DNA of 63,966 nucleotides from positions 1 to 63,966 of IMG/VR virus record IMGVR_UViG_3300033112_000364, one strand, 5' to 3'. Both the position numbers and the translations under genes were made by a program. The first letter of the stretch is position 1, and the number at the start of each line of letters is the position of its first letter. Positions 13,241-56,913 of this stretch are shown here, piece after piece. Source of the DNA: a virus. The notes beneath the pieces were generated by a model, which was not told the origin of the DNA, made no database searches, and worked only from the letters and a program-made list of their open reading frames with translations.

Positions 13241-13258
13241 TCTTTCTCCCCTTTATTA

Positions 13259-14711: not shown

Positions 14712-14717
14712 TTTTTT

Positions 14718-15044: not shown

Positions 15045-15071
15045 CTCTATCCTCTAATTTTGATAAAATCA

Positions 15072-19136: not shown

Positions 19137-19464
19137 ACCAGATTATTGTAATAAACATGCCAATAAGAGGTATGTAATTGAGAAGGGCAAACCAACCCGG
19201 TCTACTCATATCATGCCAACGCTTAACATTGAGCGATACATGTATCCAGATATACAAAATACCTAAAAGTAAACCAATAGTGAGTTGTTTTGCGTTAAAT
19301 ATCTCTCCAAAAGTAAAATCATGAGGAATACTATAATGCGTAAGGATTATTAACAATTTTGTAACAATAAACGCCAATAAATGCCCGGTCCACCAATCGA
19401 ATCTATTAATTCTTCCATGATGGCTAAACAACAATTTCTCTAAAGGCATGTCTTTTGATTTCAT
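19081..19464 (-). CDS. DUF805-like inner-membrane protein
   Basis: GRINRFDWW ... VKRWHDMSRPGWFALLNYIPLIGMF matches the DUF805 (YhaH/YhaI-type) pattern as I remember it. Confidence 0.6.
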   Translation of the reverse strand: MKSKDMPLEKLLFSHHGRINRFDWWTGHLLAFIVTKLLIILTHYSIPHDFTFGEIFNAKQLTIGLLLGILYIWIHVSLNVKRWHDMSRPGWFALLNYIPLIGMFITIIWCGFIKGTSEDNEHGPSTT

Positions 19465-19473
19465 TTTATCTCC

Positions 19474-20217
19474 TTAAAAACTAAAATTAAGAGCGTTCTT
19501 CCAATGCCAGTTCCACGGTTCAATATCAACATGATGTGTGATATTATCATATTGTATTTCACCAGATATTTCTAAGGCAACAAGATTAATAATTGAAATT
19601 TTGGAAATAGGTAAAATAAGAATTGGTAATACACGTACTTGAAAGTTGTTAAATCTGTGTGTAGGCAAGAATTCTGTTAAAACAGATATGTACGGAAATT
19701 GTAATTCAATATGTGCCTGTGGCCCCCATTCCATATCTGTGTTAACATTGAAATCGGCATGTAGCTCTTCTTGTGCTAACCAAGTGCCAACTCCACCATT
19801 CAATTTAATTGTAGGTTGGTTAATAATATCTACATGGAAAAACATCCCGCCATGAAAAAGTGATTCTTGTTCTGACAAAGTTTTTTTTCCATAACGACTA
19901 TAAAGACGCAATCCAAACATTCCTCGATGATAACCACCTTCTATCCTTGCGCGAATATAATCGTGATGATCGGGTGCTTCATCTCTAAAATGTATCCATT
20001 CCACACCAGCATATCCATTAATAAAATCCAGAGGATATGTTGCTGATAATGTCATTGTTTGTTTGTCATTGTTACCGTGCGTAGATACAGAAAAATTAGG
20101 TCTGTCTTCTACCGAATATTCTGCAAACGCTGGTTGTGATATAACGCCAACAACAAAGGAAAAAACTATAAATATAACACAAAATATAATTTTGAAAAGG
20201 GTTTCACTTAATTTCAT
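19474..20217 (-). CDS. secreted outer-membrane beta-barrel-like protein
   Basis: Signal peptide ends in AFA/EY. The sequence shows an alternating beta-strand pattern. The C-terminal ALNFSF ends in Phe, the OMP beta-signal. Confidence 0.5.
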   Translation of the reverse strand: MKLSETLFKIIFCVIFIVFSFVVGVISQPAFAEYSVEDRPNFSVSTHGNNDKQTMTLSATYPLDFINGYAGVEWIHFRDEAPDHHDYIRARIEGGYHRGMFGLRLYSRYGKKTLSEQESLFHGGMFFHVDIINQPTIKLNGGVGTWLAQEELHADFNVNTDMEWGPQAHIELQFPYISVLTEFLPTHRFNNFQVRVLPILILPISKISIINLVALEISGEIQYDNITHHVDIEPWNWHWKNALNFSF

Positions 20218-20229
20218 AATAAACCTCTT

Positions 20230-21063
20230 TTAGAGTCTAAAACCTATACTACGAAACCATTTTATCATATCTTTATCAGGTATTAGATCGTCTAACATAG
20301 ATATAAATTCTTCATTAGATAAAGTTGAATGGGAATGAACATTATCAAAGACTTTCGCAAATGTGCCTTCCCAGTTGGTTTCAATATATTTGACAATTGT
20401 ATGTGAATAGCGATAACACCATATTGTCAATTCATAATCAGAATAAATTCCAAAACCTTCCGTCCAGTGTTGGACAGCGTTGATTTGATTTTGATCCATT
20501 CGTAAATCTTTTTCAAAAGAATCAAAAACAGGATGCCTCTCTGTATCTGAATAATAGTTTTCATTTAATACAGCGAATCCTTCGTCTGCCCAGGTTGGCA
20601 GAAAAAAAGGAGCAATAAAAGCATGCGTTAGCTCATGTGCGCGTACGTATTCTTTCTTAAACATTTCATAAGGAAAATGCATGGACAATTTGACTATACG
20701 ACCTATTCCTTCAAATGTTTTAGTTGTATAAGCAGAATTTTTACCACCATTTACATACTCAGAAATAGTCACATGTATTTTATGATCTGGTTTAAATCTA
20801 TATCGTTTGTAAAATTCATCAAACAATTTTTCCATGTTAGTTAACGCAATTTTTCTATATGTATCACGCTTTTTCTGTGTATTAAATAGTATATCAGATT
20901 TTATATCATTAGCAAATTCAAAATTAAAATGGATTCGCTCACTATTGCTATTTTCTGATACATCAAGATGTACATCTTTGTCTTGTGATAATATCACAAT
21001 TAATGAAATTAATACAAACAAAAATAATAGCAATACAAATAAAATATATTTTGGGCGTTTCAC
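20230..21063 (-). CDS. membrane-anchored HExxH zinc metallopeptidase-like protein
   Basis: N-terminal TM segment (YILFVLLLFLFVLISLIVIL) and HELTH followed by WADEGFAVLNE. The start codon is GTG. Confidence 0.5.
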   Translation of the reverse strand: MKRPKYILFVLLLFLFVLISLIVILSQDKDVHLDVSENSNSERIHFNFEFANDIKSDILFNTQKKRDTYRKIALTNMEKLFDEFYKRYRFKPDHKIHVTISEYVNGGKNSAYTTKTFEGIGRIVKLSMHFPYEMFKKEYVRAHELTHAFIAPFFLPTWADEGFAVLNENYYSDTERHPVFDSFEKDLRMDQNQINAVQHWTEGFGIYSDYELTIWCYRYSHTIVKYIETNWEGTFAKVFDNVHSHSTLSNEEFISMLDDLIPDKDMIKWFRSIGFRL

Positions 21064-21111
21064 AATAAACTCCTTGTAATGTAATTTTTCAAATATTATG
21101 AAAATAGTTCA

Positions 21112-28210: not shown

Positions 28211-28669
28211 CTAAACACCTTGATTATAGGCAAGCACTCCACCCAACAAAGGATTAAACCTTGCACTACCCTCACGCCCTAATCCTATCAATGTGCTGAA
28301 CGCATCCTCATCATTTGTAAACACTAACATCGCAGAATAAGTTGCCATAAGCACAGCAGCAGGTGTTTGGGTCACATCAGGCATTGGTGGTGTAAATGTT
28401 CCGCTCTCAACAGATACACCATTAGCTAAAACACCTTGCGGATCGCGGTCTGTAGGATACGATGCAGAAAATCCGAAATCATCATGTGCTGTATCGTAGT
28501 CCGTACCTAAAATATAGATAAAATCAATTGTAAATGGTATACGCACCCCGCGTCTTGCATGAAATGTTTTGCGTTCATCATCCGCATCAATTTCCAAGTG
28601 ACAAGGTGCGTACATCAAGAGTTCCAAAACAAATATGTCATCACATATTTTTGGCTCTAAAGTTGCCAT
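28211..28669 (-). CDS. hypothetical virion-module protein (152 aa), MAxxxxIC..F N-terminal family
   Basis: N-terminus is MATLEPKICDDIFVLELLMYAPCHL. Compare the next two family members. Confidence 0.5.
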   Translation of the reverse strand: MATLEPKICDDIFVLELLMYAPCHLEIDADDERKTFHARRGVRIPFTIDFIYILGTDYDTAHDDFGFSASYPTDRDPQGVLANGVSVESGTFTPPMPDVTQTPAAVLMATYSAMLVFTNDEDAFSTLIGLGREGSARFNPLLGGVLAYNQGV

Positions 28670-28683
28670 CAGACATTCCTCTA

Positions 28684-29160
28684 TTATGGTGTTCCTGTAT
28701 CCATTGTTAGCGTTCCGCCGATTGTTTCACTGCGTGCTTCCGTATTTTGTGTTCCATAAGTAACGCTTGCGTTTGCATTACAAGCGTAGGAAAGCGTTCC
28801 TGTTTTGAGAGTGCTGGGTCCGCCTGAGAAATCGGGTTTCGTTGGATTGATGATTGGCGCGCCGATGCTCATATTCGCCTGATTGCCCGCATGTAGCACA
28901 CCGTTCATAATTGTTGCACTAAACGATGAATTAGGTTCATGCCCGCCTATCCCAACATAATACTCAAATGCAAAGATAAGTTCTGCACTATTGCCCGGAG
29001 ACAACTCAAATTCTCTATTATCTGTGCCTTGTTCATAATTCACTGTATCTGTACTTGCAGCAGATACACCTCTGACTTCATCTGTGTAATCTACAAAAGC
29101 GAGGTGACAATCTAAAGCTGCAATAATTTCTATCGTAAATGCATCTGTACAAATAGCCAT
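28684..29160 (-). CDS. hypothetical virion-module protein (158 aa), MAIC N-terminal family
   Basis: N-terminus is MAICTDAFTIEIIAALDCHL. Confidence 0.5.
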   Translation of the reverse strand: MAICTDAFTIEIIAALDCHLAFVDYTDEVRGVSAASTDTVNYEQGTDNREFELSPGNSAELIFAFEYYVGIGGHEPNSSFSATIMNGVLHAGNQANMSIGAPIINPTKPDFSGGPSTLKTGTLSYACNANASVTYGTQNTEARSETIGGTLTMDTGTP

Positions 29161-29172
29161 TTTATTTGACTC

Positions 29173-29613
29173 CTATTTTAATTCTATTCCTATGAGTTCT
29201 TTTCTGAGGATTTTACCCTCAAGTTGTTGTTCGGGATCATAATAAGCACACGCAATTGCCATGCGTTGCTTGCCTTTATGGTGAACATCTATGATTTTGT
29301 ACACTTTCATTAACATTCGGATTTGTATATGTGTAAGTTGTTCAGATAACAGAACACATAATTGGTCTTCAAGGAAATCACCTAATACAGGATTGTCTCC
29401 TTCTGCTAACCATGTATTCATCGTTTCGTTGCCGTCAAAATTTACTATCGGGTCTTGTTTACGAAGATTGGGTATTATACCCTTGTTCAATTTACCATCA
29501 TGTTGTATCACAAACACATGGTATCTTTCGGTTAATGTGCCTATATGTTTGACACTCAAGCGAGGATTGAGAAGTAAACATAAAACTCGTGTTGTTTCGT
29601 TTTTTTGCATCAT
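29173..29613 (-). CDS. hypothetical protein (146 aa)
   Basis: Coupled ORF. No motif recognised. Confidence 0.55.
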   Translation of the reverse strand: MMQKNETTRVLCLLLNPRLSVKHIGTLTERYHVFVIQHDGKLNKGIIPNLRKQDPIVNFDGNETMNTWLAEGDNPVLGDFLEDQLCVLLSEQLTHIQIRMLMKVYKIIDVHHKGKQRMAIACAYYDPEQQLEGKILRKELIGIELK

Positions 29614-31028
29614 GCGGGTCCTACTCCTGTTTCTTGTTGTCCAACGCGGAATATACGCGTTATTGTTTCGCCATAGAGCCGAATATCTCCATCTCCCTCT
29701 ACGGTAACAGCACGTGCTTCAATCTGATATACGCCATCAACGAGCGGATACTCATTACCAAACGGATAACACCGTAGCTGATGATAGGGTGATGCATACA
29801 GTTGATCGGGCCATTCAACGTTTGTAGTTACTATATCCACGTTGCTATTCCAATTACTCCACGCTGCATTGCCTCTCTTGGTTCGGAATTCGTAATAATC
29901 AATTTGTAATGCCGATTCAGTTGGTTGTGTAATAGGCACACCATTCCGATATTCAGGTTGGGGCCAATAGTTATGAAAGAAACCATTTGGCACCGTCGGA
30001 TCGCCTAACCAAAAAGGTTGTTCCCATTGCAACCGCCATCGTTCATCTAAAAAATTGGGATCAAAAGGTATTCTCGTGCTATAAACAGACAGATCAAGCT
30101 GTACATTACGCGGATTAGGTATAGGTCTATCTGCTTCTTCTAACACCTCTACGGGCCATGCCAGTCTGATGTTTGTACTGTCCCTGTTCCATACCGTTCT
30201 TTCTTCTTGTGTAGAACCAGGTTTTATCTGAATACCAACACTGAATTCATCATATTCATTCCAAAATACGACGGGTTGTTCACCTTCCTGTTCAATTACA
30301 GGTTGCAGATCACTAATAATTCGTTGTCCTCGTTCAACTGGAATAATCGTTTTGAGTAAATCCCAAAAAACACCGATATTCTCTACAACACGACCTGGAT
30401 ACTCTTTGACTGCTCCTGGAATTCGGTCATATATTTCTGAACCTTCCTCTCGTAAGCGTGACACGATAATTCGTATATCTACTGGCATCTTATTGCCTTC
30501 ATCATCTTCAGGCAAATCCCACTCTACAACCCAGCCATTTCCTAACTTGCGTGCTGTAAGATTAGCAATGACTGCCTCTGGTGTGGTAAAGATAATAAGA
30601 TCAGGTTCAGGTGTAGGCACTTCACCGCGAACAGGTTGATATGCACTTACATCCATCCATACATAATAAAAATCATCACTATCTTCTTCCCATCTTGGCA
30701 CATGTCCATTGATAACGGCTGTAACAACAACATCTTGCTCCTCATCTGCTTCGACATTCACAAGATTCGGTGATTCAGGTGAAATACTAACGACGCGCGC
30801 ACCGCGAGGCACGATATGTCCTTGATTTCCTTCAAATTTCACCTTGAACGGTGCATCTACAAAAGGCGGTTCACCTATAATATATTTTCCACGTGCAGTA
30901 AATTCTTGACCAATTTGCACATCAATTCTATTCGGTTGCATTGGCGTAATATAGGCTTCAACTGGGTCTGCTTCAGACAACGCTCCCACAGAAATATCAA
31001 TGTAAAAATCGTATTCACATATTGCCAT
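29610..31028 (-). CDS. virion-module protein (472 aa), MAIC N-terminal family
   Basis: N-terminus is MAICEYDFYIDISVG, followed by beta-rich, W-rich domains. Confidence 0.5.
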   Translation of the reverse strand: MAICEYDFYIDISVGALSEADPVEAYITPMQPNRIDVQIGQEFTARGKYIIGEPPFVDAPFKVKFEGNQGHIVPRGARVVSISPESPNLVNVEADEEQDVVVTAVINGHVPRWEEDSDDFYYVWMDVSAYQPVRGEVPTPEPDLIIFTTPEAVIANLTARKLGNGWVVEWDLPEDDEGNKMPVDIRIIVSRLREEGSEIYDRIPGAVKEYPGRVVENIGVFWDLLKTIIPVERGQRIISDLQPVIEQEGEQPVVFWNEYDEFSVGIQIKPGSTQEERTVWNRDSTNIRLAWPVEVLEEADRPIPNPRNVQLDLSVYSTRIPFDPNFLDERWRLQWEQPFWLGDPTVPNGFFHNYWPQPEYRNGVPITQPTESALQIDYYEFRTKRGNAAWSNWNSNVDIVTTNVEWPDQLYASPYHQLRCYPFGNEYPLVDGVYQIEARAVTVEGDGDIRLYGETITRIFRVGQQETGVGPA

Positions 31029-31036: not shown

Positions 31037-31222
31037 TTAATATGTGCTTGAAGGTGAATCATCATCATAATCTATAGCAGACGTATCTATTGCAATTAAC
31101 CATCTGCCAACACGGACAGGCATTAACCTAATAAGATTAGGATTTGAATTTATTCTGATAGCAGTTTTCAGCCCGTTCAGTGTTTTTTTCTTATTAAACC
31201 TTATTGGTTTCATTGAACACAA
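31037..31222 (-). CDS. hypothetical small protein (61 aa)
   Basis: Short ORF filling a gap; weak evidence. Confidence 0.3.
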   Translation of the reverse strand: MCSMKPIRFNKKKTLNGLKTAIRINSNPNLIRLMPVRVGRWLIAIDTSAIDYDDDSPSSTY

Positions 31223-31602
31223 CCAATCAGTAAAGTCTCATTACACGCATTAACGAGACTTTCAGATATATTGTAAAGAAACTCGTATATTTCCAACACG
31301 TCTTTATCAACCATTTTAAGAAAAGGTTGGTTTACAAGAAAATATTCAATATCATCAAGATTTTCAATTATATCAGATGGAATCAGATATGTGTCGTTCG
31401 CAACGTGGATAGCATCCGCAGGCGATTCTGCTACGTGCAAGATAAGCAGTGGCATTTGATTCAAGAACTGACTTTCCAAAACACGCTGTCCATCAAACAA
31501 GGAATCTTTGACCTGTTCTTTAATTGGTTTAATTCCAACAAGATAAGAATCATTCATGAGATCAGATTGTCTGTGCTGAAAATATGTGATTTTATCTATC
31601 AT
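31210..31602 (-). CDS. hypothetical protein (130 aa)
   Basis: Coupled ORF downstream of the glycosyltransferase cassette. Confidence 0.55.
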   Translation of the reverse strand: MIDKITYFQHRQSDLMNDSYLVGIKPIKEQVKDSLFDGQRVLESQFLNQMPLLILHVAESPADAIHVANDTYLIPSDIIENLDDIEYFLVNQPFLKMVDKDVLEIYEFLYNISESLVNACNETLLIGCVQ

Positions 31603-32582
31603 TAGCGTAGTACTCCTGTGAATTGTTTTAGAAATGCTTCATAGCTGACATTATCTTTCACCCATTTTCTGTTCCATGTAGCGATAGCAGCGTATTCTTC
31701 TTCTTCTGCTATCATCAGATCAATGTCGTCAGAACTTGTGCTGCAATGCCGTTCTGCTTTCAATCCGTGTTTACCAGCAATCACAGGTAAGCCTGTTGCC
31801 ATCATTTCAGCGTATGCTTGACCGAAACACTCATGCGTTGCCAGCCACAACCCAAACATGTTTTTTTGCATAGTGCGTGCAACTTCCATTTGAGATAAAC
31901 TCGGATAAAAATTGTCTGTTACACTTTTGAGTTCAGTTTCAAGCTGAACTGAAGGATCACTTTTATCAGGTTTTGACCACAAGCCCGCAGAACCGATATA
32001 AGTTGTTGAAATTCCTTTGTCTTGGAATGTCTTGAAAGCATCAATAACTGCCTTAACATTCTTGATCCAACTAACATGCCCCGTAGCAACGATGGAATTC
32101 TCTTTGACTGGATCATGCGGTGGCATAAACACGTCCATTGGAACTGGATCGCATAGGATAGCATCGGGTGTAATATCGTAATAAGAAAAGATATTTGCTT
32201 GATACTGGCAGTTGCAGGTGATTTTATCAAAAGTGTTTAGCACAGCATCTCTAAACTTTGCTTCCCACCGCATCACTTCAAATTCAGAACAGACGAGAAT
32301 AAGCATCCGATTGTTAAGCTTACCGATCTCCGTTATCTTCTCCCAATGCTCGTTGTCATCTTCGTTATACAACTTGAACCACAACGGCTCTACCAAAACA
32401 ACAGGTGCATCAATATCATTTGGATCATCGGTGAGTTGTGTGTAGTATTGCTGACCTAATGCTTCTACAATGCGTTGCGTTTTGACTGCCATACCGCCAC
32501 CGAAGCCTTGATGTTCAGGGCGTTGATGTAGGTTATAGTCGTGCCATTTCTTGCATGTGACGTAAGATACCATATAGTTCAT
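31602..32582 (-). CDS. GT-B (GT1/GT4-type) glycosyltransferase
   Basis: ECFGQAYAEMMATGLPVIA matches the E-x7-E motif. ATG 32582 makes an ATGA overlap with the upstream stop and GGAG lies upstream. The track start is 32600. Confidence 0.7.
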   Translation of the reverse strand: MNYMVSYVTCKKWHDYNLHQRPEHQGFGGGMAVKTQRIVEALGQQYYTQLTDDPNDIDAPVVLVEPLWFKLYNEDDNEHWEKITEIGKLNNRMLILVCSEFEVMRWEAKFRDAVLNTFDKITCNCQYQANIFSYYDITPDAILCDPVPMDVFMPPHDPVKENSIVATGHVSWIKNVKAVIDAFKTFQDKGISTTYIGSAGLWSKPDKSDPSVQLETELKSVTDNFYPSLSQMEVARTMQKNMFGLWLATHECFGQAYAEMMATGLPVIAGKHGLKAERHCSTSSDDIDLMIAEEEEYAAIATWNRKWVKDNVSYEAFLKQFTGVLR

Positions 32583-33283
32583 CTTGAGTTCTCCAACCAA
32601 TGCGTTTTATACCATTCATGCCGTATTACCGATGGATACAAGGAATAGACACCATCTCCTTGCATTTTTTTGATACCTTGTTCCATCAACCAATATCCAG
32701 TAGACTTTGCTTCTGCAAGCAGCATTGTTGCCCCCGCAGGTGTAATAAGTGTGCCATAATCGCCAAATGCAATTTCTTGTGTGATGCGTGTAAATACATG
32801 GTGCGTATCTTTCAGCGTAACAGGCACAGGTTTCTCAAATCTGTGTGTTGCTGGTGTATACCTACCAAGCTGAACAATCCTCATGTCCTGTTTATGTTGA
32901 TACAAGAGTGCATGTGCCACAGCTTCTAAATCCCAAAAATCAATGTTCAACATACAATCATCGAGAATGAACAACGCACAGGTCTGTATCTCATCGCGAA
33001 TAGTGCGAATAAGCGAAAGATAGCTCCACATGATAGCGACTTCAATGGCGATATTGGGATGTTTCCAGTCGTCAGCGTAATGAAACTCACCAAAATGCTC
33101 AAAACCATCGGCAACAGCAGCTTCCGTAATCTCTTTCAGGGGTTTGTTGCGTCCATCTTTGGCAGGATAAAGTGTGATTATTTCCTCTGGCACATTCTGC
33201 GTTAGTAAATTACCGATTGTGATACCTGCCCGCATCACTTGATCTTCAAGGTTCAGGATAAAGACTTTTTCTATAGCTGGCAT
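32579..33283 (-). CDS. GT25-like (LPS-type) glycosyltransferase, paralog of 34253..35035
   Basis: The N-terminus EKVFILNLEDQVMR resembles the GT25 start. It shares AAVADGFEHF with AAIADGFPSF in the paralog. Confidence 0.5.
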   Translation of the reverse strand: MPAIEKVFILNLEDQVMRAGITIGNLLTQNVPEEIITLYPAKDGRNKPLKEITEAAVADGFEHFGEFHYADDWKHPNIAIEVAIMWSYLSLIRTIRDEIQTCALFILDDCMLNIDFWDLEAVAHALLYQHKQDMRIVQLGRYTPATHRFEKPVPVTLKDTHHVFTRITQEIAFGDYGTLITPAGATMLLAEAKSTGYWLMEQGIKKMQGDGVYSLYPSVIRHEWYKTHWLENSR

Positions 33284-34287
33284 ATTGCTTCCGCCCTTTT
33301 TCTTCCAATTGTTGTATTTCCGAATGCTGAAGAAAGCACATCAAGACAATCCTGATGCCATTCCTTTTCCCAATCAAATCCATTTGTGGTGTAGATATGT
33401 GATAGTGTGGACTCATGATCCCAATCTTCATATACCCACAATGTTTTGGGATCAAACCCGTGTAATCGTGTAGATGTTCCCAAAAGAAATATTTCTAAAA
33501 TCGTTGTTTCTAAAGATGAATATTTTGCGAGTTTGAAAAACATATCGTGAAAGTCTTTATTGTTTCGCAAACTCTTTGGAAATCCAACGAACCATCCGCC
33601 AATCACAGGGCTTTCTTTTGTGTTATCTAACATTGTATCTTTTATTTTTTTATCAGGATATATTTGTTCTGTAGTATCCCAGAATTGGTCGTAAGTTTTC
33701 AGATAACGTTCCATGTGTTCAATCGCCCATATAGGTGGGCGATCTTCTTTTAAATATGGTGGGTTTGCTGTGTAAATTTTATCCTCCATATTTTGTTGTT
33801 GAAGTTTTTGAAAAAGTCTGTATTTTTCTTTGCCTAAAAATGGATAAGAATCCACATCTAAAACAAGTAATGAATCGTAATCGTTGAAAACTTCCTCAAA
33901 TATACCAGCCCATTTTACTGCAAATTGCATAGGTTCAGGCTGAGAGTAAATCACACGTAAATGCAAAGGAACATTCGCTTTGTCAAAAATATCCATAACG
34001 ACTGAGGCATTCTTTTCTCCAATCAGAAAATATGTGGGAATACCTTCTTCTATAGCGTCAGTTGCTTGGATATATTTTAAAGCTGTCCAGACAGATGCGC
34101 GAGCCCACATAGCATGATTATGACATGCAGTGTCGCTTGCATCTATGAGAAAAATAGGCAGAGCGACTGCAATAGTATTCTTATATTCATAATCAAAGCA
34201 ATCTGAAACACTTTCTGTTATTTCAGGCAATCGTGATATATGTGCTCTATGTTCAACGTTGTTCATGTTCACCCATCCGATAAACAC
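33271..34287 (-). CDS. putative transferase of the glycosylation cassette (338 aa)
   Basis: LLVLDVDSYPF is a DxD-like motif. The gene sits between glycosyltransferase genes. The start is uncertain (34287 or 34266). Confidence 0.4.
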   Translation of the reverse strand: MFIGWVNMNNVEHRAHISRLPEITESVSDCFDYEYKNTIAVALPIFLIDASDTACHNHAMWARASVWTALKYIQATDAIEEGIPTYFLIGEKNASVVMDIFDKANVPLHLRVIYSQPEPMQFAVKWAGIFEEVFNDYDSLLVLDVDSYPFLGKEKYRLFQKLQQQNMEDKIYTANPPYLKEDRPPIWAIEHMERYLKTYDQFWDTTEQIYPDKKIKDTMLDNTKESPVIGGWFVGFPKSLRNNKDFHDMFFKLAKYSSLETTILEIFLLGTSTRLHGFDPKTLWVYEDWDHESTLSHIYTTNGFDWEKEWHQDCLDVLSSAFGNTTIGRKRAEAICQL

Positions 34288-35035
34288 TTAAATGTTCAAA
34301 ACCTCTAAAACCACCAAAATCATCATACCCTTTAGCATGTGTAGTCATACTGGTCGAATGAGGGATATACGTCACAGAAAGTTCTTCGGGTAACGTCCAA
34401 ATACCTTCCACATCTTTCCACTTAGAAAATCTTGGATCAGACTCTATCTCAACAAAGAAAGTGTCCAGTCCAGTAAATTCGTCTGCATAAGGCGATGCCA
34501 TGATCCAGTCGACAAATCGTGGGGTAATAATTATTGCCTGATCATAGTTGTGATTGGTAATGCCTTTGAAGATCATGTGATTGAAATTACCATAGCCATC
34601 TCTATTCCAATCTTTGAGGCTGGTATAAGATAATAAGTTTAACAAACGCCATTCTTCATCAAATCCATCTAATCTACCTGTAATGTGTTCATACCTATCA
34701 AACTTCATACGCAACAACACATCGTCATGAATGATCATCGCACATTCACCATTTTCTTTGATCTTTCGCCAGAGATGCATGTATGCCCATTGCTGTGCAA
34801 CACATCTGAAAGTCCAACTTTGCGATTCGTTTTTGTTCACATTTTCAAATGATGGGAATCCATCTGCGATGGCAGCATCACAAAGATCGTTGATGTTGCC
34901 ATAATCCTCAAAATCAGCACCATAGAAAATCTCTATACGATCTATCGGAACACCCATCGTAAATAATCCACCCAAACAGATTAGCATCCGATCGCGTGCA
35001 CGGTCTATTGTGAATATATAAACTTTATCTATCAT
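34253..35035 (-). CDS. GT25-like glycosyltransferase
   Basis: IDKVYIFTIDRARDR at the N-terminus, an IIHDDVLL motif, and paralogy with 32579..33283. Confidence 0.5.
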   Translation of the reverse strand: MIDKVYIFTIDRARDRMLICLGGLFTMGVPIDRIEIFYGADFEDYGNINDLCDAAIADGFPSFENVNKNESQSWTFRCVAQQWAYMHLWRKIKENGECAMIIHDDVLLRMKFDRYEHITGRLDGFDEEWRLLNLLSYTSLKDWNRDGYGNFNHMIFKGITNHNYDQAIIITPRFVDWIMASPYADEFTGLDTFFVEIESDPRFSKWKDVEGIWTLPEELSVTYIPHSTSMTTHAKGYDDFGGFRGFEHLSVYRMGEHEQR

Positions 35036-36042
35036 GATAACTCCAATGCTCTAACAGCGTATTTCGCTGTTTGTTGATGTTGATATGTTTCAGAATTGAC
35101 ATGTGATACAATGTCTCGGTCAGTCAGTTCATTGAGTTGGGGTGCAAGCGATTTACCATAACCACCGATGACAAGAATCTGTTCATCATGAGGCACTTTC
35201 ATAACATCAAGAGCCTTGAGAATAGAAAGCATATCCTGCTGTGTTATCGGATTAGAAACTTTCATTACCATCTGTTTATGAAAACCACCGTTTGCCGTAA
35301 TCGTCCAACGCACACCAGCAAGTGCTTCCAATTCGCTTGGTATGAAATCAATCTCAGGGTAACTAATCACTAACCATGTACCAGCAATGATAATAGGTTT
35401 GGGATCAAAGACAGAAATACAACTATGATCATGCCCACCAGCAAACACTCTTACACCCTCTTTTGTTTTGCCAACAATCGTGCTTGGACTGATAAACTTA
35501 TCTGAAAACGGCAATGTGTTAAAACACGGCAGATAACTGGCTTTGTAGGTATCAAACACTTGCATTGCCCATTCCCGTTGTCTCAGATTAAAGAGACCGC
35601 TATTCGCTGCGTGTGTTAACTCCCATGTATCGATAGATACATCACAGAGTTCACTCGCAATATATGTGGAAACAGGTAAAACAGTTAATAAATCATAGTA
35701 ATTGAAAGTCAGTAGCGTTTGAAAAACAGAACCGATGTCACGATCTATATGTGTTGGTGTGCCTGTTATCTGATAGAAGTTTTCACGCACTGGTGTCAAA
35801 GCGTATCTCGGACTGTAAACAACGTTATCGTAAATGATGCTCTCACCGAAACTGATAGGGAATATAGCCTCATAACGAAACTTATCAAAGTGAGAGATAA
35901 CTTCTCGTACGCATGCTTTCAGTTTCTCAGCAGACCGAATGTCCGTAGGCACTTTGTAATCAGCAATTAGGTGCAACGATGCATCAAATAGATAGCCTTT
36001 CGTATACGAGCAGCCGATGTCAAGTATCAATACTTTCTTCAT
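35032..36042 (-). CDS. FGGY-family-like carbohydrate/polyol kinase
   Basis: ILDIGCSYTKG (phosphate-1), AGGHDHSCIS, AGTWLVIS and VIGGYGKS, in FGGY/ASKHA order. Confidence 0.65.
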   Translation of the reverse strand: MKKVLILDIGCSYTKGYLFDASLHLIADYKVPTDIRSAEKLKACVREVISHFDKFRYEAIFPISFGESIIYDNVVYSPRYALTPVRENFYQITGTPTHIDRDIGSVFQTLLTFNYYDLLTVLPVSTYIASELCDVSIDTWELTHAANSGLFNLRQREWAMQVFDTYKASYLPCFNTLPFSDKFISPSTIVGKTKEGVRVFAGGHDHSCISVFDPKPIIIAGTWLVISYPEIDFIPSELEALAGVRWTITANGGFHKQMVMKVSNPITQQDMLSILKALDVMKVPHDEQILVIGGYGKSLAPQLNELTDRDIVSHVNSETYQHQQTAKYAVRALELS

Positions 36043-36499
36043 ACAGCATTCCTATTTTCTTGAGGTATCCTGATGTAGAAATATACTGTTCACTGAGTCT
36101 TTCTAATAACACTCTTTGAATACCATATTTTTCCAAAACACCTTCAAGTGGACAAGTTTTATCTTGTCCTTGTGCCAAGATATGAGGACGAACCTTATCA
36201 ATAAGTTCTATTTGTGCCAAGTCGTTGTGTTCAATACACACTTCTATTGGAACATTTGCAGGATCAGGACATTTTAATCCGTAAATATGAACCTTATTCA
36301 CGTGACGATTAGATTCAATAATTTTCTTGCGATGCTCAGCAGGAAATATCGGTTCACGTTTCTTGTAAGCTCTCAAGATATTGTCACTCGCAACACCGAC
36401 TGTCAAGTGTGTGCCTAATTTAGAAGCCTGTTCATATAAATCGCAATGTCCTAAATGGTAAAGATCAAAACAACCTACAACAAGTATTCGCTTTTTCAT
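36020..36499 (-). CDS. cytidylyltransferase-family nucleotidyltransferase (TagD / RfaE-domain-II-like)
   Basis: GCFDLYHLGH is the HxGH motif. LYEQASKLGTHLTVGVASD, EHRKKIIESNRHVNKV and ISTS align along the B. subtilis TagD sequence as I remember it. Confidence 0.8.
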   Translation of the reverse strand: MKKRILVVGCFDLYHLGHCDLYEQASKLGTHLTVGVASDNILRAYKKREPIFPAEHRKKIIESNRHVNKVHIYGLKCPDPANVPIEVCIEHNDLAQIELIDKVRPHILAQGQDKTCPLEGVLEKYGIQRVLLERLSEQYISTSGYLKKIGMLYEESIDT

Positions 36500-36573
36500 T
36501 ATTTCAAAAAAATAGAATATATGACAAAAATGATTATAACAAAATATGTCCCATAAACAATCCCTTTAAACAT
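36499..36573 (-). CDS. possible 24-aa hydrophobic micro-protein (MFKGIVYGTYFVIIIFVIYSIFLK)
   Basis: ATG 36573 has AGGAG/TAGGA upstream. Its TAA stop shares 1 nt with the cytidylyltransferase ATG (TAATG). It is below the size cut-off of the ORF track. Confidence 0.3.
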   Translation of the reverse strand: MFKGIVYGTYFVIIIFVIYSIFLK

Positions 36574-36585
36574 TCCTAATGTCTC

Positions 36586-37005: not shown

Positions 37006-37209
37006 TTAAATTTCGCCCCAGAAGTCTCCGGGACAACTGCTGATATTGTGCATTGTTTGAACTTCATCATTCATAGACGCTAATTTAGACATTATCTGTT
37101 CATCAAGAGTCAATCGACAATCCCCGTCAATGTCCCAATACTCGTCAGCAGAAACATAACGCTGTTCTTTGAATGACCACATCATTCCTGATTCTTGATT
37201 TTTATGCAT
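37006..37209 (-). CDS. small protein with an EF-hand-like loop (67 aa)
   Basis: DIDGDCRLTLDE fits the 1-3-5-12 positions of an EF-hand loop. Confidence 0.45.
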   Translation of the reverse strand: MHKNQESGMMWSFKEQRYVSADEYWDIDGDCRLTLDEQIMSKLASMNDEVQTMHNISSCPGDFWGEI

Positions 37210-39389
37210 TAATTTACTCCTATATATAAATCATTAAATCTCGGTATTTCTTCAGTTCCTTTGATATGAACCCGAACTCGAACATCAGCTTGAACGAATG
37301 TGCCAAGCCTGAATTTGTTTCCCGCAGAAACTGAATATTCTTTCCAATCTGACATCCCTCGTTCTGTTTCTACCCGCATTTCTACGGTCTGCGGGCTATC
37401 TTCTGGATGTGCCAAAACAACTTCAGAAACGCGAGAATAGCGAGGTAATTCCACATAGTTTGTTACCCACAACCATTCTGTTTCATCAGAAGCTTCTCCG
37501 TTATACAATTCTACAACTTGATTGTCAACAAGAGCGTATAAAATATCTTCATCACCATCACCCCCGACGCTATGTAAGATTGAAGTTATGGCTACATCCC
37601 AAATTGTCCAATAGTTTCTTTGTAAATCAAGAATGTATGTGCGATCACCGAGCATGAGATGATAACGAGATTGCCATATTTCTGCACGTGCTGCCCTAAT
37701 TTCATCATCAGTGGCTTCATCTAAAAAAGGTTGAATGCTCAAAGACATTTCTTCTGTTTGTAGGGCGTGGTCACCACCGAGAGAATAAACTCTGCGATCA
37801 GTGTCAAGATAAAATGTCATAGAACCAAAGGAAACGATACTATGAGGTGAGCGAGTGCCTTTTCCATTGATCCCACCAGAAGCGTCAATATCAGTTTCTG
37901 GACTAATTTCTAACTGGAAAATACCCGTGATAATCTGTTGTCCTTTTATTGTCCTTATCGCGTGAGGGAAAAAGACGTAGATGCCCCCGCTTGGTGGAAT
38001 AACGTGCATCGCTTGCACGCGAGCATTCCAACTTCCCAGTATGCGAATTGCGTGAGGCAACCTGTGATCGTCATAGGGCATTACTTCAGGACGATCAATA
38101 TAACTAAATCGGATTACGTGCAAATCTGCATCATAACCCCAAATTCTGCCCGCATAAGCCAGAATATGACGCAAGCCTCGTTGGTCTGGTTCGGTGTGAA
38201 ATTCCTTTGTCCGCAGGTAGTCGAAAGGGTCTGCGGGACGCTCATCAGTCCATGAGAAAGTTGAAGGTATCGTAAAACTCAAACTCAATCGCTTTGCAGC
38301 GTTGATGTATGTGAAATCAAAGGGAATGTCTTTAGGCTCTTTGACATTAGTTCTACTGCCCAAACGCTTGGCATAAAATCGAATTTGATCACACCAAGTT
38401 GGAATGTCTTCAGAATAGCCAGTAATGTTTATTGTTGCATCGGTTCTGGTTGGCAAGTTCAAATTTGTAGATGCTACAACTCGGATTTGAGAAATCGGTG
38501 AGGGTGGTGATTCAATTCCATGCTTGCTGGAAGCATAGGTATAACAAATCGCATAAATACCACGTCTAAAACCTTGACCTTCTATCAAATCCCCACCGTC
38601 AATGATGTCTTCTACGAATTCTTCTTCTTCATCGAGATCATCTATAAGGGTGACTTCTTGAACATCAAAAACTTGTGCTTCGTCATCACTATCCAAATAG
38701 GATACTGACGGAAAATAACCAGCTTGAGCAACTTGCTCACCTACATCGTTATTACCATCCCAAACAAATTCGCTGTTGCCAGTCGGTAGAGTGTAAAATC
38801 CTTCATGTCCTTCTACAGCTTCAGGGTTTTCATTAGGTAAAAGTGTTCTTACCAAAATGCCAGCAGAGTTGAAAATCTGAACGCGAACTCTGCTGTTTGT
38901 AGCACAAGCAATCCGAACTGATCCACCATCTTCATTGAAACGAGTAGGATCAAGTTGAACTGCTACAATACCAGTTACACCCTGACGACTAATAACTAAA
39001 GAAAGGTTGGGAGCTGATTCGGGTTGTGGTAGTTCCCAATCATATTCAGTATTTGAATCGGCGTCGAACCACCCATTTCGTGAGGATTGACTGGGATCAG
39101 CGATAAATAGTCTTCTACCAAACAGAGCGTATGTGGCTTGCGTATCTATGCGTTTGTAGCGTGATACGCCGTCGTAATGTCTATCACCTACAAAATGAGC
39201 AACAACCAACTGACCACGAGTCCCTTCAAATCGCTGGGAACTGGAGATATATCCTTTCCGCAGAACAGAGCGACCTTCGTTGTTGATCTCAACATTCACA
39301 AGTTTGTAAGGTGCGAGGCGATTACCTTGAAAGCCAGCAGACGCTTCAAGACCATATCGCAATTCACTCGCTTTTATCGGTGTTGCCAT
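37209..39389 (-). CDS. large virion structural protein (726 aa) with a FlgD-type Ig-like insertion
   Basis: VRVQIFNSAGILVRTL...GNSEFVWDGNNDVGEQVAQAGYF matches the FlgD_ig pattern. The gene lies after terL. Confidence 0.5.
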   Translation of the reverse strand: MATPIKASELRYGLEASAGFQGNRLAPYKLVNVEINNEGRSVLRKGYISSSQRFEGTRGQLVVAHFVGDRHYDGVSRYKRIDTQATYALFGRRLFIADPSQSSRNGWFDADSNTEYDWELPQPESAPNLSLVISRQGVTGIVAVQLDPTRFNEDGGSVRIACATNSRVRVQIFNSAGILVRTLLPNENPEAVEGHEGFYTLPTGNSEFVWDGNNDVGEQVAQAGYFPSVSYLDSDDEAQVFDVQEVTLIDDLDEEEEFVEDIIDGGDLIEGQGFRRGIYAICYTYASSKHGIESPPSPISQIRVVASTNLNLPTRTDATINITGYSEDIPTWCDQIRFYAKRLGSRTNVKEPKDIPFDFTYINAAKRLSLSFTIPSTFSWTDERPADPFDYLRTKEFHTEPDQRGLRHILAYAGRIWGYDADLHVIRFSYIDRPEVMPYDDHRLPHAIRILGSWNARVQAMHVIPPSGGIYVFFPHAIRTIKGQQIITGIFQLEISPETDIDASGGINGKGTRSPHSIVSFGSMTFYLDTDRRVYSLGGDHALQTEEMSLSIQPFLDEATDDEIRAARAEIWQSRYHLMLGDRTYILDLQRNYWTIWDVAITSILHSVGGDGDEDILYALVDNQVVELYNGEASDETEWLWVTNYVELPRYSRVSEVVLAHPEDSPQTVEMRVETERGMSDWKEYSVSAGNKFRLGTFVQADVRVRVHIKGTEEIPRFNDLYIGVN

Positions 39390-39900: not shown

Positions 39901-41814
39901 TTAAAATTCATCAAGGTTTATACCTAATCCTTCAAAAGCGTCAAAACCGAACCCCAAGCCACCATGTTGCTCATGTTGTTCAGGATATAAAATCGCATGA
40001 TCTGTCTGTTCCTGTTCAATCCGTTTTTCGCGAGCAGTTTTGGGATCAGATAATGCGAGATGTCCTAAAATTGCACTGCCAAGAGCGATAACCCTATCAT
40101 CGTAGAAACCTAACTCGCTATCTCCAGGCTTGCGAGTTTGACCCTTTCGTTTTGCCATCGCCCGGACATTACCCTCACTCACACCAGTACCTTCAGTTTT
40201 TTTCCAAATATACTGGTTCATTTCACGAATGGTTTCAATGTCAAATAACCGAATTGTTTTGTTGAGTATCTGATACCGCATTTTTTCAACCATGTCTATG
40301 TGCGTTCTCGGATTGTTGTTCCAACCATAGTCTTTGTTGGTATCTCCTGAATTTGGGAATATCGCATCATGTGTTAGGATACTGTGCGCGCCCCAGCGAA
40401 GCAACGAATCAATCACGGTAATACCAGCATCGTTATTCTCAATAACCCAAAATCCCTCGTTATACCATTTCCAAAGCATGAACGCTTGCTCTGCGAACTG
40501 AACGGGAATGAGGTTGCGAGACTCATATCCACGCAATACTGCTACCTGTTTGAATGGATTGCGTTTTATGACCTGGAGAGAACAATAACTATCTTTACCA
40601 CGACTGGTATCAACACCTAACACATAATCACCGTCTGGATCGGGTTCTTCTTTCACCCTGATGATGCCAGGTTTTACATTCAAAAATAATGGCGATTTGT
40701 CCTCAAATGCGGGTTTGTCAATGTCCATTTCCCCTTCGAGAATTGGATCACTGACATCTTTTTCATGATACCACTTCAAAACAATCGGATCAAACACATT
40801 TTTATCAGTGTGTAAAAATGCTTCTTCCGCAGTTGATGGATACTCTCTGTAGAAATCCAAAAGTGTGATTGAGTTGAGTTTCCATCTTCGCCACTTCAAA
40901 TTTTCAAGTTCAATCTTATAGTGAGTATCACCAACAGAAACCCCATCAAGATTTAGCAGTTCTTGTTCGTTTCCCCAGCGCGGATGCTCATTTTGTGTAA
41001 CACTCATCTGAAATTCACGTTTTTCTTTTTCATTCTCAAATTCATGCCAGTAGTTCGGATGTAGATACCACGCGAGAAATAATGATTGGAATATATCATC
41101 GCCTTCCTCTGCTCGTTGCCAACGCCTATGAAAATCATCATCGTAGGCTTGAGCTGTGGTTTCCATAAAAATACCTGAATTTGCTACTTCGGGAATTGTA
41201 GGTGAAATCGCACCCATAAACTTTGGCAGGTCTTTGTAATACGCAGCTTCAGAGAGATGAAGATAATCCATCGCCCGTCCACGTATCTCTTTTTCGTGTT
41301 CACAAGCCAGAAATGAATTTGTCGCGAGCAGCCTGTGTCCACCCCTTTCATTTCTTTTCTTTGCGAGAGACTGCAACTCTTTTGGCAACATTTGTAGAAA
41401 TGTCAAATAATACTCATAGATATGTTCTGATGAACCCTCTTTCTCATGTGCGGCGACAGCACATCTCAAGTGAGGCTTCATGAACATTAGAACCGTCAAA
41501 ATCGCAGCTATTAGACAAGAAATCCCCAATTGACGGGCTTTCAAGATAATAATGCGAACTGGAAGTCCCGCACGAATCATCGCAAAAAACTGCATCAATA
41601 ACAATTTTTGACCAGGTGTCAGTATGAGGGGACCAAACTCGTTACCACCGTATAGCTGCACTTTAAAGAAATTATTAAGAATCGCTTCAAATACATCTAT
41701 ATCTTCAAGTATTATAGGATCGCGAGCGAGAAGGAGTTCAATAAGATCAGAGAGAAATTCTATCTGCTCATCAGAAAGCTCATCTGAGTCGAACCCATTG
41801 CGGATCACTAACAT
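39901..41814 (-). CDS. terL: terminase large subunit
   Basis: Walker A-like ILKARQLGIS, Walker B-like DYLHLSEA, and nuclease-domain VLGVDTSRGKD. The size is 637 aa. Confidence 0.85.
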   Translation of the reverse strand: MLVIRNGFDSDELSDEQIEFLSDLIELLLARDPIILEDIDVFEAILNNFFKVQLYGGNEFGPLILTPGQKLLLMQFFAMIRAGLPVRIIILKARQLGISCLIAAILTVLMFMKPHLRCAVAAHEKEGSSEHIYEYYLTFLQMLPKELQSLAKKRNERGGHRLLATNSFLACEHEKEIRGRAMDYLHLSEAAYYKDLPKFMGAISPTIPEVANSGIFMETTAQAYDDDFHRRWQRAEEGDDIFQSLFLAWYLHPNYWHEFENEKEKREFQMSVTQNEHPRWGNEQELLNLDGVSVGDTHYKIELENLKWRRWKLNSITLLDFYREYPSTAEEAFLHTDKNVFDPIVLKWYHEKDVSDPILEGEMDIDKPAFEDKSPLFLNVKPGIIRVKEEPDPDGDYVLGVDTSRGKDSYCSLQVIKRNPFKQVAVLRGYESRNLIPVQFAEQAFMLWKWYNEGFWVIENNDAGITVIDSLLRWGAHSILTHDAIFPNSGDTNKDYGWNNNPRTHIDMVEKMRYQILNKTIRLFDIETIREMNQYIWKKTEGTGVSEGNVRAMAKRKGQTRKPGDSELGFYDDRVIALGSAILGHLALSDPKTAREKRIEQEQTDHAILYPEQHEQHGGLGFGFDAFEGLGINLDEF

Positions 41815-48497: not shown

Positions 48498-49364
48498 TTA
48501 AAACATTTTGATTTGTTGTAGGTTTAGTCGTTCCTTACAGAGTTCTATAGCTTCTGGCTTTTCATCAATGCCAATATATCTACGGTTGAGCATATCAGCT
48601 GCGATGATTGTTGTGCCGCTACCACAGAACGGGTCTAATACAAGGTCATTTTCCGCAGAAGATGACCTGATCATTCTCGCATATAATGCGAGTGGCTTTT
48701 GAGTTGGATAATCAACTCGCTCTTTTGATTTGACAAATTCAATTGTCCACACCGTTCGTTGTCTCATGAGCGTTCCTTTCTCACATTCAAGTTTGAGATT
48801 GTGTAACGCTTCATCGTTGTGTTGAACATACTTTGTATAGAATAGAATAGTATTGTGATTGACTGTGAACCGTCGTTTTGTACATGGCATTGGTATTTTA
48901 TTTGGATAGTGCCAAATAATTTCAGAGTTGAACGCACCTTTATCTTTGAAGATTTTATTGAGTATAATACGCCACACGTGCGTTGTTCTGTAATCAATGT
49001 GCCAATAAAACCCACCGCCCCATTTGAGTACACGATACAACTCACGGACAGTTGGTATCATTTGCATAAAATAAAATAGTTCCTTCGGACTACAAAAATG
49101 ATGTAGGAAATAGAACTCATCATCTTCATATTTTTTGTGAAATGCTTCAACAGCATCAAACCATTTAGACTTATCGTTAGTATAGTCTCCAGTTTCGAGA
49201 AAATCATCTTGATATGTGACTCCGCTTGGTTGTCTCCAAGACAGCAACGCCCTATTTTGAATCCGTCCTGTGTTGAACGGTGGGTCTGTGCATATTAGGT
49301 CTACACTCTCGTCCGACATATTTACTAACACATCAAGATTATTTGCTACAAGTAAATTATTCAT
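48498..49364 (-). CDS. beta-class N6-adenine / N4-cytosine DNA methyltransferase
   Basis: The catalytic motif TDPPF lies near the N-terminus and the SAM motif LDPFCGSGTT near the C-terminus (order IV then I). Confidence 0.85.
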   Translation of the reverse strand: MNNLLVANNLDVLVNMSDESVDLICTDPPFNTGRIQNRALLSWRQPSGVTYQDDFLETGDYTNDKSKWFDAVEAFHKKYEDDEFYFLHHFCSPKELFYFMQMIPTVRELYRVLKWGGGFYWHIDYRTTHVWRIILNKIFKDKGAFNSEIIWHYPNKIPMPCTKRRFTVNHNTILFYTKYVQHNDEALHNLKLECEKGTLMRQRTVWTIEFVKSKERVDYPTQKPLALYARMIRSSSAENDLVLDPFCGSGTTIIAADMLNRRYIGIDEKPEAIELCKERLNLQQIKMF

Positions 49365-56900: not shown

Positions 56901-56913
56901 TTTTTATTTACAC

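Follow-up and report, generated by a model that had tools for sequence, protein, structure and literature searches.

A compact seven-gene cassette joining a predicted activation pair to putative glycosyltransferases in a phage of Candidatus Poribacteria

Introduction

It is well known that phages carry genes for glycan synthesis, as exemplified by serotype conversion, by the gene sets of cyanophages and by the glycosylation of virions and DNA. Prophages convert the serotype or the receptors of their hosts through the Gtr clusters of Shigella and Salmonella phages or the TarP protein of S. aureus prophages. The precursors of teichoic acids and capsules are supplied by enzyme pairs such as GlpK and TagD, or by a ribulo- or xylulokinase-type kinase together with a cytidylyltransferase and a reductase, and glycosyltransferase (GT) family GT25 includes the beta-galactosyl/glucosyltransferases Lic2A, LgtB and LpsA of lipooligosaccharide (LOS) as well as the collagen galactosyltransferase COLGALT1. 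For the glycosylation of mycobacteriophage virions we know of no dedicated kinase and nucleotidyltransferase. The marine cyanomyovirus S-SCSM2R encodes TagD, KdsA/B and 13 glycosyltransferases, considered a set for cell-wall synthesis or modification whose target is not proven (PMC12801897), and pneumococcal capsule loci carry the cytidine diphosphate (CDP)-2-glycerol genes Gtp1-3, of which the source gives the names only (PMC1391919). Here we describe a cassette of seven genes that combines a predicted kinase and nucleotidyltransferase with several putative glycosyltransferases, encoded in a viral DNA stretch of 63,966 nucleotides (IMG/VR record IMGVR_UViG_3300033112_000364, positions 1 to 63,966; hereafter the window). 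The hosts of this phage are Candidatus Poribacteria, uncultivated symbionts of sponges and corals. An original prediction, made from the sequence alone, had proposed at this place a complete-looking pathway for sugar or polyol activation and glycosyl transfer, embedded among virion structural genes.

Results

Organization and integrity of the cassette

Our analysis indicates that the window very probably carries a functional activation-plus-glycosyltransfer module linked to Poribacteria. The cassette consists of seven minus-strand genes extending from 31210 to 36499 (Table 1). Six of them are consecutive open reading frames (ORFs), on which an independent gene caller applied to the source contig agrees, and their successive overlaps of 23, 4, 14, 13 and 4 nt imply that the run is translationally coupled, just as the original prediction had it. 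The start of the gene encoding p130 overlaps the stop of the GT4 gene by 1 nt and, since p130 ends every variant of the cassette described below, it was counted as the seventh member and the boundary was extended accordingly. The gene run continues downstream without real gaps. Promoters and terminators scanned for in the region were not above chance (promoters: 33 found versus 41.6 expected), so that any promoter in the 86-nt gap upstream of the cassette would be putative at most. The guanine plus cytosine (GC) content of the cassette (0.396) equals that of the genome (0.400) and hence gives no compositional sign of recent import. None of the seven proteins contains a membrane segment (no 19-mer above 1.5 on the Kyte-Doolittle scale).

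Comparison of the window with its relatives L006, L005 and L003 yielded nonsynonymous divergences (dN) of 0.06-0.45 across all seven genes versus saturated synonymous divergences (dS) above 1; the lowest values were those of GT25b (dN 0.06-0.08 versus dS 1.3-1.7), followed by GT4 (dN 0.11-0.13 against L006 and L005), and the remaining comparisons fell between 0.20 and 0.45. Because the catalytic columns detailed below are invariant and dN is far below dS, the genes are not inactive remnants with lost catalytic residues, an outcome that the original prediction had named as fatal to it; the motifs are kept under purifying selection. The intact cassette, in which a kinase-nucleotidyltransferase pair is joined to several glycosyltransferases, is therefore real.

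Table 1. Positions and main characteristics of the cassette genes, of other features of the window and of related cassettes
Feature	Position or contig	Strand	Characteristics
Nucleotidyltransferase, 159 aa	36020-36499	minus	PF01467 (TagD/ECT/CCT/HldE-II class); HLGH at residues 15-18
Compact kinase, 336 aa	35032-36042	minus	FGGY fold (AlphaFold2 model, Foldseek)
GT25-like GT-A paralogue a, 260 aa	34253-35035	minus	Paralogue of 32579-33283
Protein X, 331 aa (ATG 34266) or 338 aa (GTG 34287)	33271-34266/34287	minus	Conserved D137-V-D139
GT25-like GT-A paralogue b (GT25b), 234 aa	32579-33283	minus	Most conserved cassette gene
GT4-type GT-B transferase, 326 aa (ATG) or 332 aa (TTG 32600)	31602-32582/32600	minus	PF00534, E-x7-E
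p130, small acidic protein	31210-31602	minus	Ends the cassette in all variants
Upstream gap, 86 nt	36500-36585	minus	Only sizeable gap in the gene run; contains an exact TATAAT
p726, 726 aa, upstream neighbour	37209-39389	minus	Weak FlgD_ig match only (E 1e-4, under cut-off)
p472, downstream neighbour	29610-31028	minus	No Pfam or PHROG match
Large terminase	39901-41814	minus	tblastn to annotated Stx-converting phage large terminases: 25% identity, 77% coverage, E 2e-18
Portal	59636-61594	minus	phrog_156, E 5e-16, nearly full length
Junction-spanning ORF	5790->1 joined to 63911->61605	minus	At most 2,699 codons after circularisation
Collagen-like repeat protein and neighbour (weak endolysin)	15836-16588 and 16645-17439		Collagen-like: many tail-fibre PHROGs, best E 8e-9; neighbour: weak endolysin match
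Methylation-related and RuvC/Vsr-like genes	13678-14523, 48498-49364, 51678-52382, 52354-52803, 54498-55001		
Plus-strand island	56115-59195	plus	Four ORFs
ORF of the plus-strand island	57943-58842	plus	Weak PAPS (3'-phosphoadenosine-5'-phosphosulfate)-reductase-like match, E 0.006, under cut-off
L006	44-kb contig		Same seven genes, 57-90% identity
L003/L004	70-kb contig		Nucleotidyltransferase, kinase, two GT25-like, 496-aa double-GT25-like fusion, short-chain dehydrogenase/reductase (SDR), GT4, p130
L027	Circular, 71.5 kb		Kinase, three GT25-like, nucleotidyltransferase, fourth GT25-like, Stf0-type sulfotransferase, two GT4, p130-like
L028	68 kb, Tara sample		Kinase, nucleotidyltransferase, GT25-like, aldo-keto reductase, GT25-like, two GT4, p130-like
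L026	46.7 kb, binned with a Poribacteria metagenome-assembled genome (MAG)		Kinase, GT25-like, PIG-L deacetylase, Stf0 sulfotransferase, two GT4, p130-like
L005	5.9-Mb circular chromosome (L005 positions 9405-15132)		Stf0-like sulfotransferase, X (51%), GT25b (87%), 679-aa leucine-rich repeat (LRR) protein, GT4 (79%), p130 (66%)

The activation pair

The superfamily placement of the nucleotidyltransferase is certain, its sequence leaving the substrate and the nucleotide unfixed. The protein scores 62 bits against PF01467, whose gathering cut-off is 21 (E 9e-17), and its best sequence matches in the PDB are the ethanolamine-phosphate cytidylyltransferase 3elb (E 2e-14) and TagD 1coz (E 1e-9), in keeping with the TagD-like cytidylyltransferase with an HxGH motif that had been anticipated. 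HLGH is invariant in 8 phage and host copies, as are residues K46, R57 and T142 besides H15, G17 and H18; the C-terminal RTxGxSTT region contains ISTS, with T142 invariant, and its Arg is conserved in none of the phage or host copies. The protein misses the cut-off of the TagD equivalog TIGR01518 (42.4 versus 165.4 bits, with residues 5-70 aligning only) and that of HldE domain II, TIGR02199 (59.2 versus 181.5 bits). Domain I of HldE has a PfkB fold, unlike the partner kinase in the cassette, which has an FGGY fold.

By sequence, the kinase stays under the Pfam FGGY_N cut-off (22.9 versus 28.8 bits, residues 121-206 only), has no FGGY_C match and retrieves nothing from the PDB. Nonetheless, the FGGY-like kinase of the original prediction is supported by its fold: the AlphaFold2 model derived from 26 homologues (pLDDT 87) matched FGGY kinases in all the top 50 Foldseek hits to the PDB (TMq 0.65-0.79), these including xylulokinase 3ll3 (E 8e-17), gluconokinase and glycerol kinases, the last of which reach a TMq of 0.79. 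Measured against these targets of 460-530 aa, TMt was 0.44-0.57 and the model covered about half to two thirds of them. The modelled protein is thus best described as a trimmed FGGY kinase, below the canonical length of ~480-520 aa with full domain inserts. Columns D8, G10, K15, G202, G203, D205, G221, T222, G293 and G294 are invariant in the 26 sequences and, following the pattern of the family, would represent the phosphate-binding and catalytic-Asp motifs of ASKHA proteins. A Foldseek search of the model against viral structures (BFVD) returned generic ASKHA/Hsp70-like and spurious matches, with no comparable viral kinase among them.

Glycosyltransferases, protein X and p130

The two GT25-like proteins are 25% identical (E 1e-13), and in this respect the predicted pair of paralogous transferases stands. 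Their link to GT25 is looser. Neither protein matches PF01755 (GT25) at E<=0.01; two of six relatives match it marginally (E 5e-4), and a profile of 15 GT25-like sequences aligned, also marginally, with the GT25 domain of procollagen galactosyltransferase 1 (COLGALT1; residues ~300-497, E 0.003) and with mimivirus R655 (E 0.02), a smaller profile of six sequences retrieving nothing from the PDB. In the COLGALT1 alignment 'hDD' is placed opposite 'EDD' and the N-terminal 'I-x-L-x-R-x-x-x-R' region also aligns, and R16, D104 and D105, shared by both paralogues and aligned to GT25 motifs, are invariant in the 15 sequences. GT25 is therefore a reasonable label for the two proteins, to be used tentatively at such E-values. 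GT25b is 87-90% identical in L005 and L006, where its neighbours reach 51-83%.

Protein X corresponds to the predicted DxD-containing unknown, and this description still applies, its D-V-D motif being conserved and its family matching none that has been described. Only 3 close relatives were found among 5.8 billion proteins, together with 66 distant ones at E<=1e-3 in an exhaustive HMMER search; the 59 members scanned yielded neither a glycosyltransferase match nor another Pfam family common to them, there was no match in the PDB by sequence, and the AlphaFold2 model from a four-sequence alignment (pLDDT 41) was too low in confidence for a fold search. The gene is present in the window, L006 and the prophage L005, and absent from L003, L026, L027 and L028. 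The GT4-type protein passes the PF00534 cut-off narrowly (27.4 versus 26.4 bits) and matches the glycosyltransferase family phrog_2170 (E 2e-8) and the VpsD family (E 4e-8, far under the VpsD cut-off), the PDB giving nothing by sequence. Its E-x7-E motif, H250-E251...E259, agrees with the GT-B transferase originally proposed, H250, E259, K174 and G168 being invariant in 10 homologues. No Pfam or PHROG family matched p130, whose homologues directly follow the last GT4 gene in L003, L005, L006, L026, L027 and L028. The profile and structure searches that had been suggested for donor specificity assign families and, like the original prediction, no substrate.

Cassette variants in related contigs

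The cassette recurs in modular variants (Table 1) whose constant set comprises one or more GT25-like genes, one or two GT4 genes and p130, X being optional; kinase and nucleotidyltransferase are present in every free phage-like contig. The FGGY-fold kinase and the HxGH nucleotidyltransferase are inherited together in phages as well as in the host, and in the phages several soluble transferases of the Leloir type accompany them. The sulfotransferases, the PIG-L deacetylase and the SDR and aldo-keto reductases that replace one another among the variants are tailoring enzymes typical of polysaccharide loci. The L027 cassette has a lysozyme gene three genes upstream and the L028 cassette is a separate operon on the strand opposite to its neighbours; therefore, a position beside morphogenesis genes is not obligatory. 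With regard to the 18401-21074 region of L028, a protein of 3,475 aa combining ParB-like, DprA-WH and RadC domains is also encoded on this Tara contig, whose cassette variant is a distant one.

L005 carries the cassette without kinase and nucleotidyltransferase. Since host genes (encoding ribosomal proteins, SSB, DnaB and PhyH paralogues) adjoin it upstream, L005 is an integrated relative with the cassette at the prophage edge, and its flanking PhyH gene clusters at >=90% identity with named Poribacteria proteins. The 679-aa LRR protein encoded between GT25b and GT4 ends in a dockerin/sorting-type C-terminus and resembles the LRR protein of the host kinase locus described below; repeat proteins of the eukaryote-like kind typify sponge symbionts. 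After p130, L005 continues with homologues of p146, p158, p152 and p353, which in the window follow p472.

Poribacteria loci encoding the activation pair

Homologues of the kinase fall into three groups, namely three phage-like contigs at 66-73% identity, ~30 clusters at 54-59% (BLASTP) whose contigs reach 1.6 Mb and include one named Candidatus Poribacteria, and distant proteins at 28-31%, encoded on contigs of 6-71 kb. When GTDB was scanned with one genome per species, 20 loci with kinase homologues emerged, nearly all in MAGs or chromosomes labelled Poribacteria, the phage and Poribacteria kinases being 52-61% identical. In the 20 host loci the kinase gene is immediately followed by that of a 133-aa PF01467 protein, which is 31-34% identical to the phage nucleotidyltransferase by tblastn and 35-39% in a MAFFT alignment, and the conserved neighbours are a MurJ-like flippase, at least two sulfotransferases and a Wzy_C-like protein. 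Homologues of the GT25-like, X and GT4 genes were not found in these Poribacteria kinase loci. Immediately upstream of the host pair (7998-9391 in locus L007) lies the gene of a conserved protein of 773 aa that comprises LRR, dockerin, FlgD-Ig and type IX secretion system (T9SS) sorting regions (5175-7496 in L007; equivalents in 20 loci).

In a distance tree the clade of the window kinase is sister to the Poribacteria clade, with the distant phage clade as outgroup, a topology compatible with transfer in either direction between phage and Poribacteria. The GC content of the window is 40% and that of the Poribacteria loci 36-43%. As judged from the sequences retrieved, the compact kinase family is confined to Poribacteria and their phages. 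Scans of IMG/VR with single sequences (kinase and p726) and with a profile of the kinase alignment retrieved zero relatives, and further members of this phage group thus appear to be absent from that database; the 29-40 kb region gave zero near-identical DNA matches in 50,697 phage genomes (INPHARED). No description of this cassette was found in the literature on Poribacteria phages with glycosyltransferases and on sponge viromes.

The phage genome and the genes flanking the cassette

The window ends are identical over 55 nt (1-55 and 63912-63966) and, because of this repeat, the record is taken as a circular assembly of 63,911 bp, with nearly all genes on the minus strand. The large terminase gene, whose Pfam Terminase_6C match is weak, lies 2-4 genes upstream of the cassette, and with it the packaging and morphogenesis region begins, the cassette being early in that run. 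Of the late structural position originally proposed, what holds is the terminase just upstream; the flanking genes were not shown to be structural, neither p726 nor p472 having a supporting match in Pfam, PHROGs, PDB sequences or the 50,697 phage genomes, and the portal gene is located elsewhere (Table 1). On the same grounds, the idea of a portal suggested by the position of p726 after the terminase was rejected. This protein has a 28% identical homologue ~7 kb upstream of the L026 cassette. It also shares a weak FlgD-Ig match with the 773-aa LRR protein of the host loci. The gene of L005 at the position equivalent to p472 encodes 381 aa with a weak fn3 match, and p146, p158, p152 and p353 are conserved downstream of the L005 cassette. 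The paralogues p158 and p152 (28211-29160) each cross-match both adjacent L005 genes, and the N-terminus of p472 resembles theirs (MAIC..F.I.I), which makes a small family directly downstream of the cassette. Another candidate, p388 as the major capsid protein, had no match in phage genomes or PHROGs.

Elsewhere in the genome, the portal gene is separated from that of the large terminase by ~18 kb, an unusual distance. Circularisation reveals an ORF across the junction that ends 10 nt before the portal gene and of which the ORF list shows only the 755-aa tail (61602-63869); it has no Pfam match and a weak match to a PHROG family of unknown function, and may encode a giant protein of the internal, ejection or virion type. 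Three DNA methyltransferases are encoded, of the phrog_56, N6/N4 and C5 cytosine types, besides a DUF559/Vsr-like protein and a RuvC resolvase; the RuvC, C5 methylase, N6/N4 methylase and Vsr-like genes lie among the DNA-metabolism genes located at 48-55 kb. For a genome of 64 kb, DNA methylation is heavily represented. Plus-strand genes are confined to a single island, which may be a regulatory or lysogeny module.

Discussion

FGGY kinases phosphorylate the primary hydroxyl of C3-C7 sugars and polyols, not the anomeric carbon, and the phosphate esters used by PF01467 enzymes of this class include glycerol-3-phosphate, phosphoethanolamine and phosphocholine. From these family chemistries, the activation pair most likely makes a donor of the CDP-polyol or CDP-ketose type. 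The compact kinase, recognised by fold and motifs, would phosphorylate a small sugar or polyol, and the nucleotidyltransferase would join this ester to a nucleotide, most probably CMP, CDP-glycerol and a CDP-pentitol being our leading guesses for the product; the reductases of L003 and L028 fit a ketose-to-alditol step. The GT25-like pair, GT4 and protein X would then extend or decorate a pre-existing cytoplasmic acceptor with host nucleoside diphosphate (NDP)-hexoses and the activated compound, both donors and acceptor being conjectured from the families observed. The cassette has no polyol-phosphate transferase of the TagF, LicD or fukutin type, and hence a GT25-like paralogue, GT4 or p130 would have to use the CDP donor. 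Finally, the acceptor would most likely be an intermediate of a host envelope glycan, so that the surface polysaccharide or LOS of Poribacteria would be altered during infection or lysogeny, which could mask receptors, exclude superinfecting phages or alter recognition within the sponge or coral holobiont. Taken as a whole, this chain of activation, transfer and envelope acceptor is our best explanation, one that we hold to be evenly balanced between right and wrong. No priming transferase, flippase, polymerase or NDP-hexose synthesis is encoded in the cassette, the MurJ-like and Wzy_C-like proteins being found in the host locus only; acceptor and donors must therefore come from the cell and the cassette is not host-independent. 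The claim of a complete and host-independent pathway had consequently to be abandoned, all the more so as the proteins lack membrane segments and L005 dispenses with the activation pair.

The original prediction had left two candidate targets side by side, the virion and the host envelope, between which the comparative evidence now leans to the second. We tentatively favour the envelope glycan, at a confidence slightly short of an even balance, since the activation pair is shared only with a sulfotransferase-rich Wzx/Wzy-type locus of Poribacteria, since the integrated L005 keeps transferases without the pair and adds a sulfotransferase and a secreted-type LRR protein that look like cargo for conversion, since the tailoring enzymes resemble those of polysaccharide loci, sulfotransferases also filling the host locus, and since the position of the cassette in L027 and L028 is not tied to morphogenesis genes. 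Several considerations weigh against this preference. What the kinase phosphorylates, which nucleotide is used and what serves as acceptor are all conjectural, and no cassette transferase belongs to a family known to use CDP-polyols; the first and second steps would be linked by co-occurrence only. Lacking a membrane protein, flippase or priming transferase, the cassette could equally act on soluble proteins. It is coupled to a terminase-led run and is thus probably expressed late, when remodelling of the surface would be less beneficial and virion proteins are abundant. Family GT25 includes a protein glycosyltransferase (procollagen galactosyltransferase), the second match of the profile is a transferase of a giant virus, and the window ORFs scanned include neither an integrase nor a repressor. 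Alternatively, soluble transferases could act in the cytoplasm before assembly on capsid, fibre or decoration proteins, as in some mycobacteriophages and giant viruses, p130 or the co-conserved p472, p146, p158, p152 and p353 being candidate substrates, with the pair supplying an unusual donor. All seven proteins without membrane segments, a cassette that overlaps or abuts its neighbours in a long minus-strand run 2-4 genes past the large terminase, the block of p130, p146, p158, p152 and p353 that follows it in both the window and L005, and COLGALT1, which acts on protein, and mimivirus R655 as the closest solved relatives of the GT25-like pair are consistent with this possibility, and for mycobacteriophages it is established that transferases of the phage glycosylate the virion (Freeman et al. 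2023, as cited in PMC12619734). Nonetheless, we consider glycosylation of the virion somewhat unlikely, because the neighbouring genes were not shown to be structural, relatives place the cassette in other contexts (an opposite-strand operon in L028, beside a lysozyme gene in L027, at the prophage edge in L005), the activation pair is common to the host surface-polysaccharide locus and the sulfotransferase and secreted LRR protein of L005 have the look of conversion genes.

The phage pair might also do no more than top up the host pool of the activated compound, the transferases then being a separate and unrelated set. The host does encode an adjacent kinase and nucleotidyltransferase itself, L005 is a case of transferases that persist in the absence of the activation genes, and families known to use CDP-polyols are not represented among the cassette transferases. 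However, kinase, nucleotidyltransferase, GT25-like, GT4 and p130 genes co-occur in six independent, highly diverged phage-like contigs despite the shuffling of their order, which argues for one functional unit, and the phage nucleotidyltransferase is far less host-like (31-34%) than the kinase (52-61%), so that this enzyme is not a simple copy of that of the host; mere supply of precursor is accordingly improbable. Even less credit, and very little in absolute terms, is given to a role of the transferases in glycosylating modified bases of the phage DNA against restriction, as in T-even phages and others with glycosylated DNA. Phages possess a diversity of GT-A and GT-B enzymes for the glycosylation of DNA (Pyle et al. 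2024, as cited in PMC12619734) and this genome encodes three DNA methyltransferases, but there is no hydroxymethylase or thymidylate-synthase-like gene among the ORFs scanned, the cassette lies past the terminase and at a distance from the genes of DNA metabolism, the source of the activation pair is a polysaccharide locus, and sulfotransferase and deacetylase partners suit glycans, not DNA.

Returning to the envelope as the favoured target, it is tempting to speculate, although we find it rather doubtful in this extended form, on an undescribed pathway for a nucleotide-activated precursor, defined by the compact kinase and its partner nucleotidyltransferase, confined to Poribacteria and their phages and used by the latter, together with their GT25-like and GT4 transferases and optional sulfotransferases, to rewrite the (sulfated) surface glycan of the symbiont; if so, phage susceptibility would change and possibly also the recognition of the symbiont by its animal host. 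Poribacteria live in abundance in sponges and corals as uncultivated symbionts, with phages and surface glycans that are almost undescribed, and the gene family that the phage shares with them alone, plus the integrated relative, provides a concrete phage-host link. A cell-surface target would offer phages a route to alter symbiont recognition in the holobiont, and a virion target would extend phage self-glycosylation beyond actinophages. The kinase and the nucleotidyltransferase are small and soluble, and their product should be identifiable by heterologous expression without culture of the host; in addition, the modular variants, with their swaps of sulfotransferase, reductase and deacetylase, are a natural series for deducing the glycan.

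Among described systems, the conversion clusters Gtr and TarP find a parallel in the temperate relative L005, with its transferases at the prophage edge beside other cargo; they differ in that the present cassette lacks a GtrA/GtrB-type membrane protein and a bactoprenol-linked step and, in the window, lies inside a late gene run and not beside an integrase. As in the glycosylation of mycobacteriophage virions (Freeman et al. 2023), soluble phage transferases could act on virion proteins in the cytoplasm; no sequence similarity to any INPHARED phage was found. With sets of the S-SCSM2R type it has in common a TagD-like enzyme and several glycosyltransferases of host-envelope type in a phage, from which it is set apart as a compact, coupled operon of seven genes that recurs in unrelated-looking contigs and a prophage, and by a kinase family restricted to one bacterial phylum and its phages.

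The closest resemblance is with the CDP-glycerol and CDP-alditol pathways, which likewise join an ester-making kinase to a small HxGH nucleotidyltransferase, TagD being among the best PDB matches, and to which the SDR and aldo-keto reductases of some variants and the position of the host pair in a polysaccharide locus also conform. Unlike in these pathways, the kinase of ~330 aa is two thirds of a canonical FGGY enzyme and falls under the Pfam cut-off, the nucleotidyltransferase scores 42 versus 165 bits for TagD and is without the Arg of RTxGxSTT, and a TagF-, LicD- or fukutin-type transferase is missing. As to family GT25, the DD motif of the paralogues can be aligned with COLGALT1 and two relatives match PF01755, whereas both window proteins remain under every Pfam threshold and the E-values of 5e-4 and 3e-3 are marginal. 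What is new with respect to all these systems is the compact seven-gene operon itself, a trimmed FGGY kinase family retrieved only from Poribacteria and their phages, its association with a divergent HxGH nucleotidyltransferase and the modular variation of the whole across otherwise unrelated contigs.

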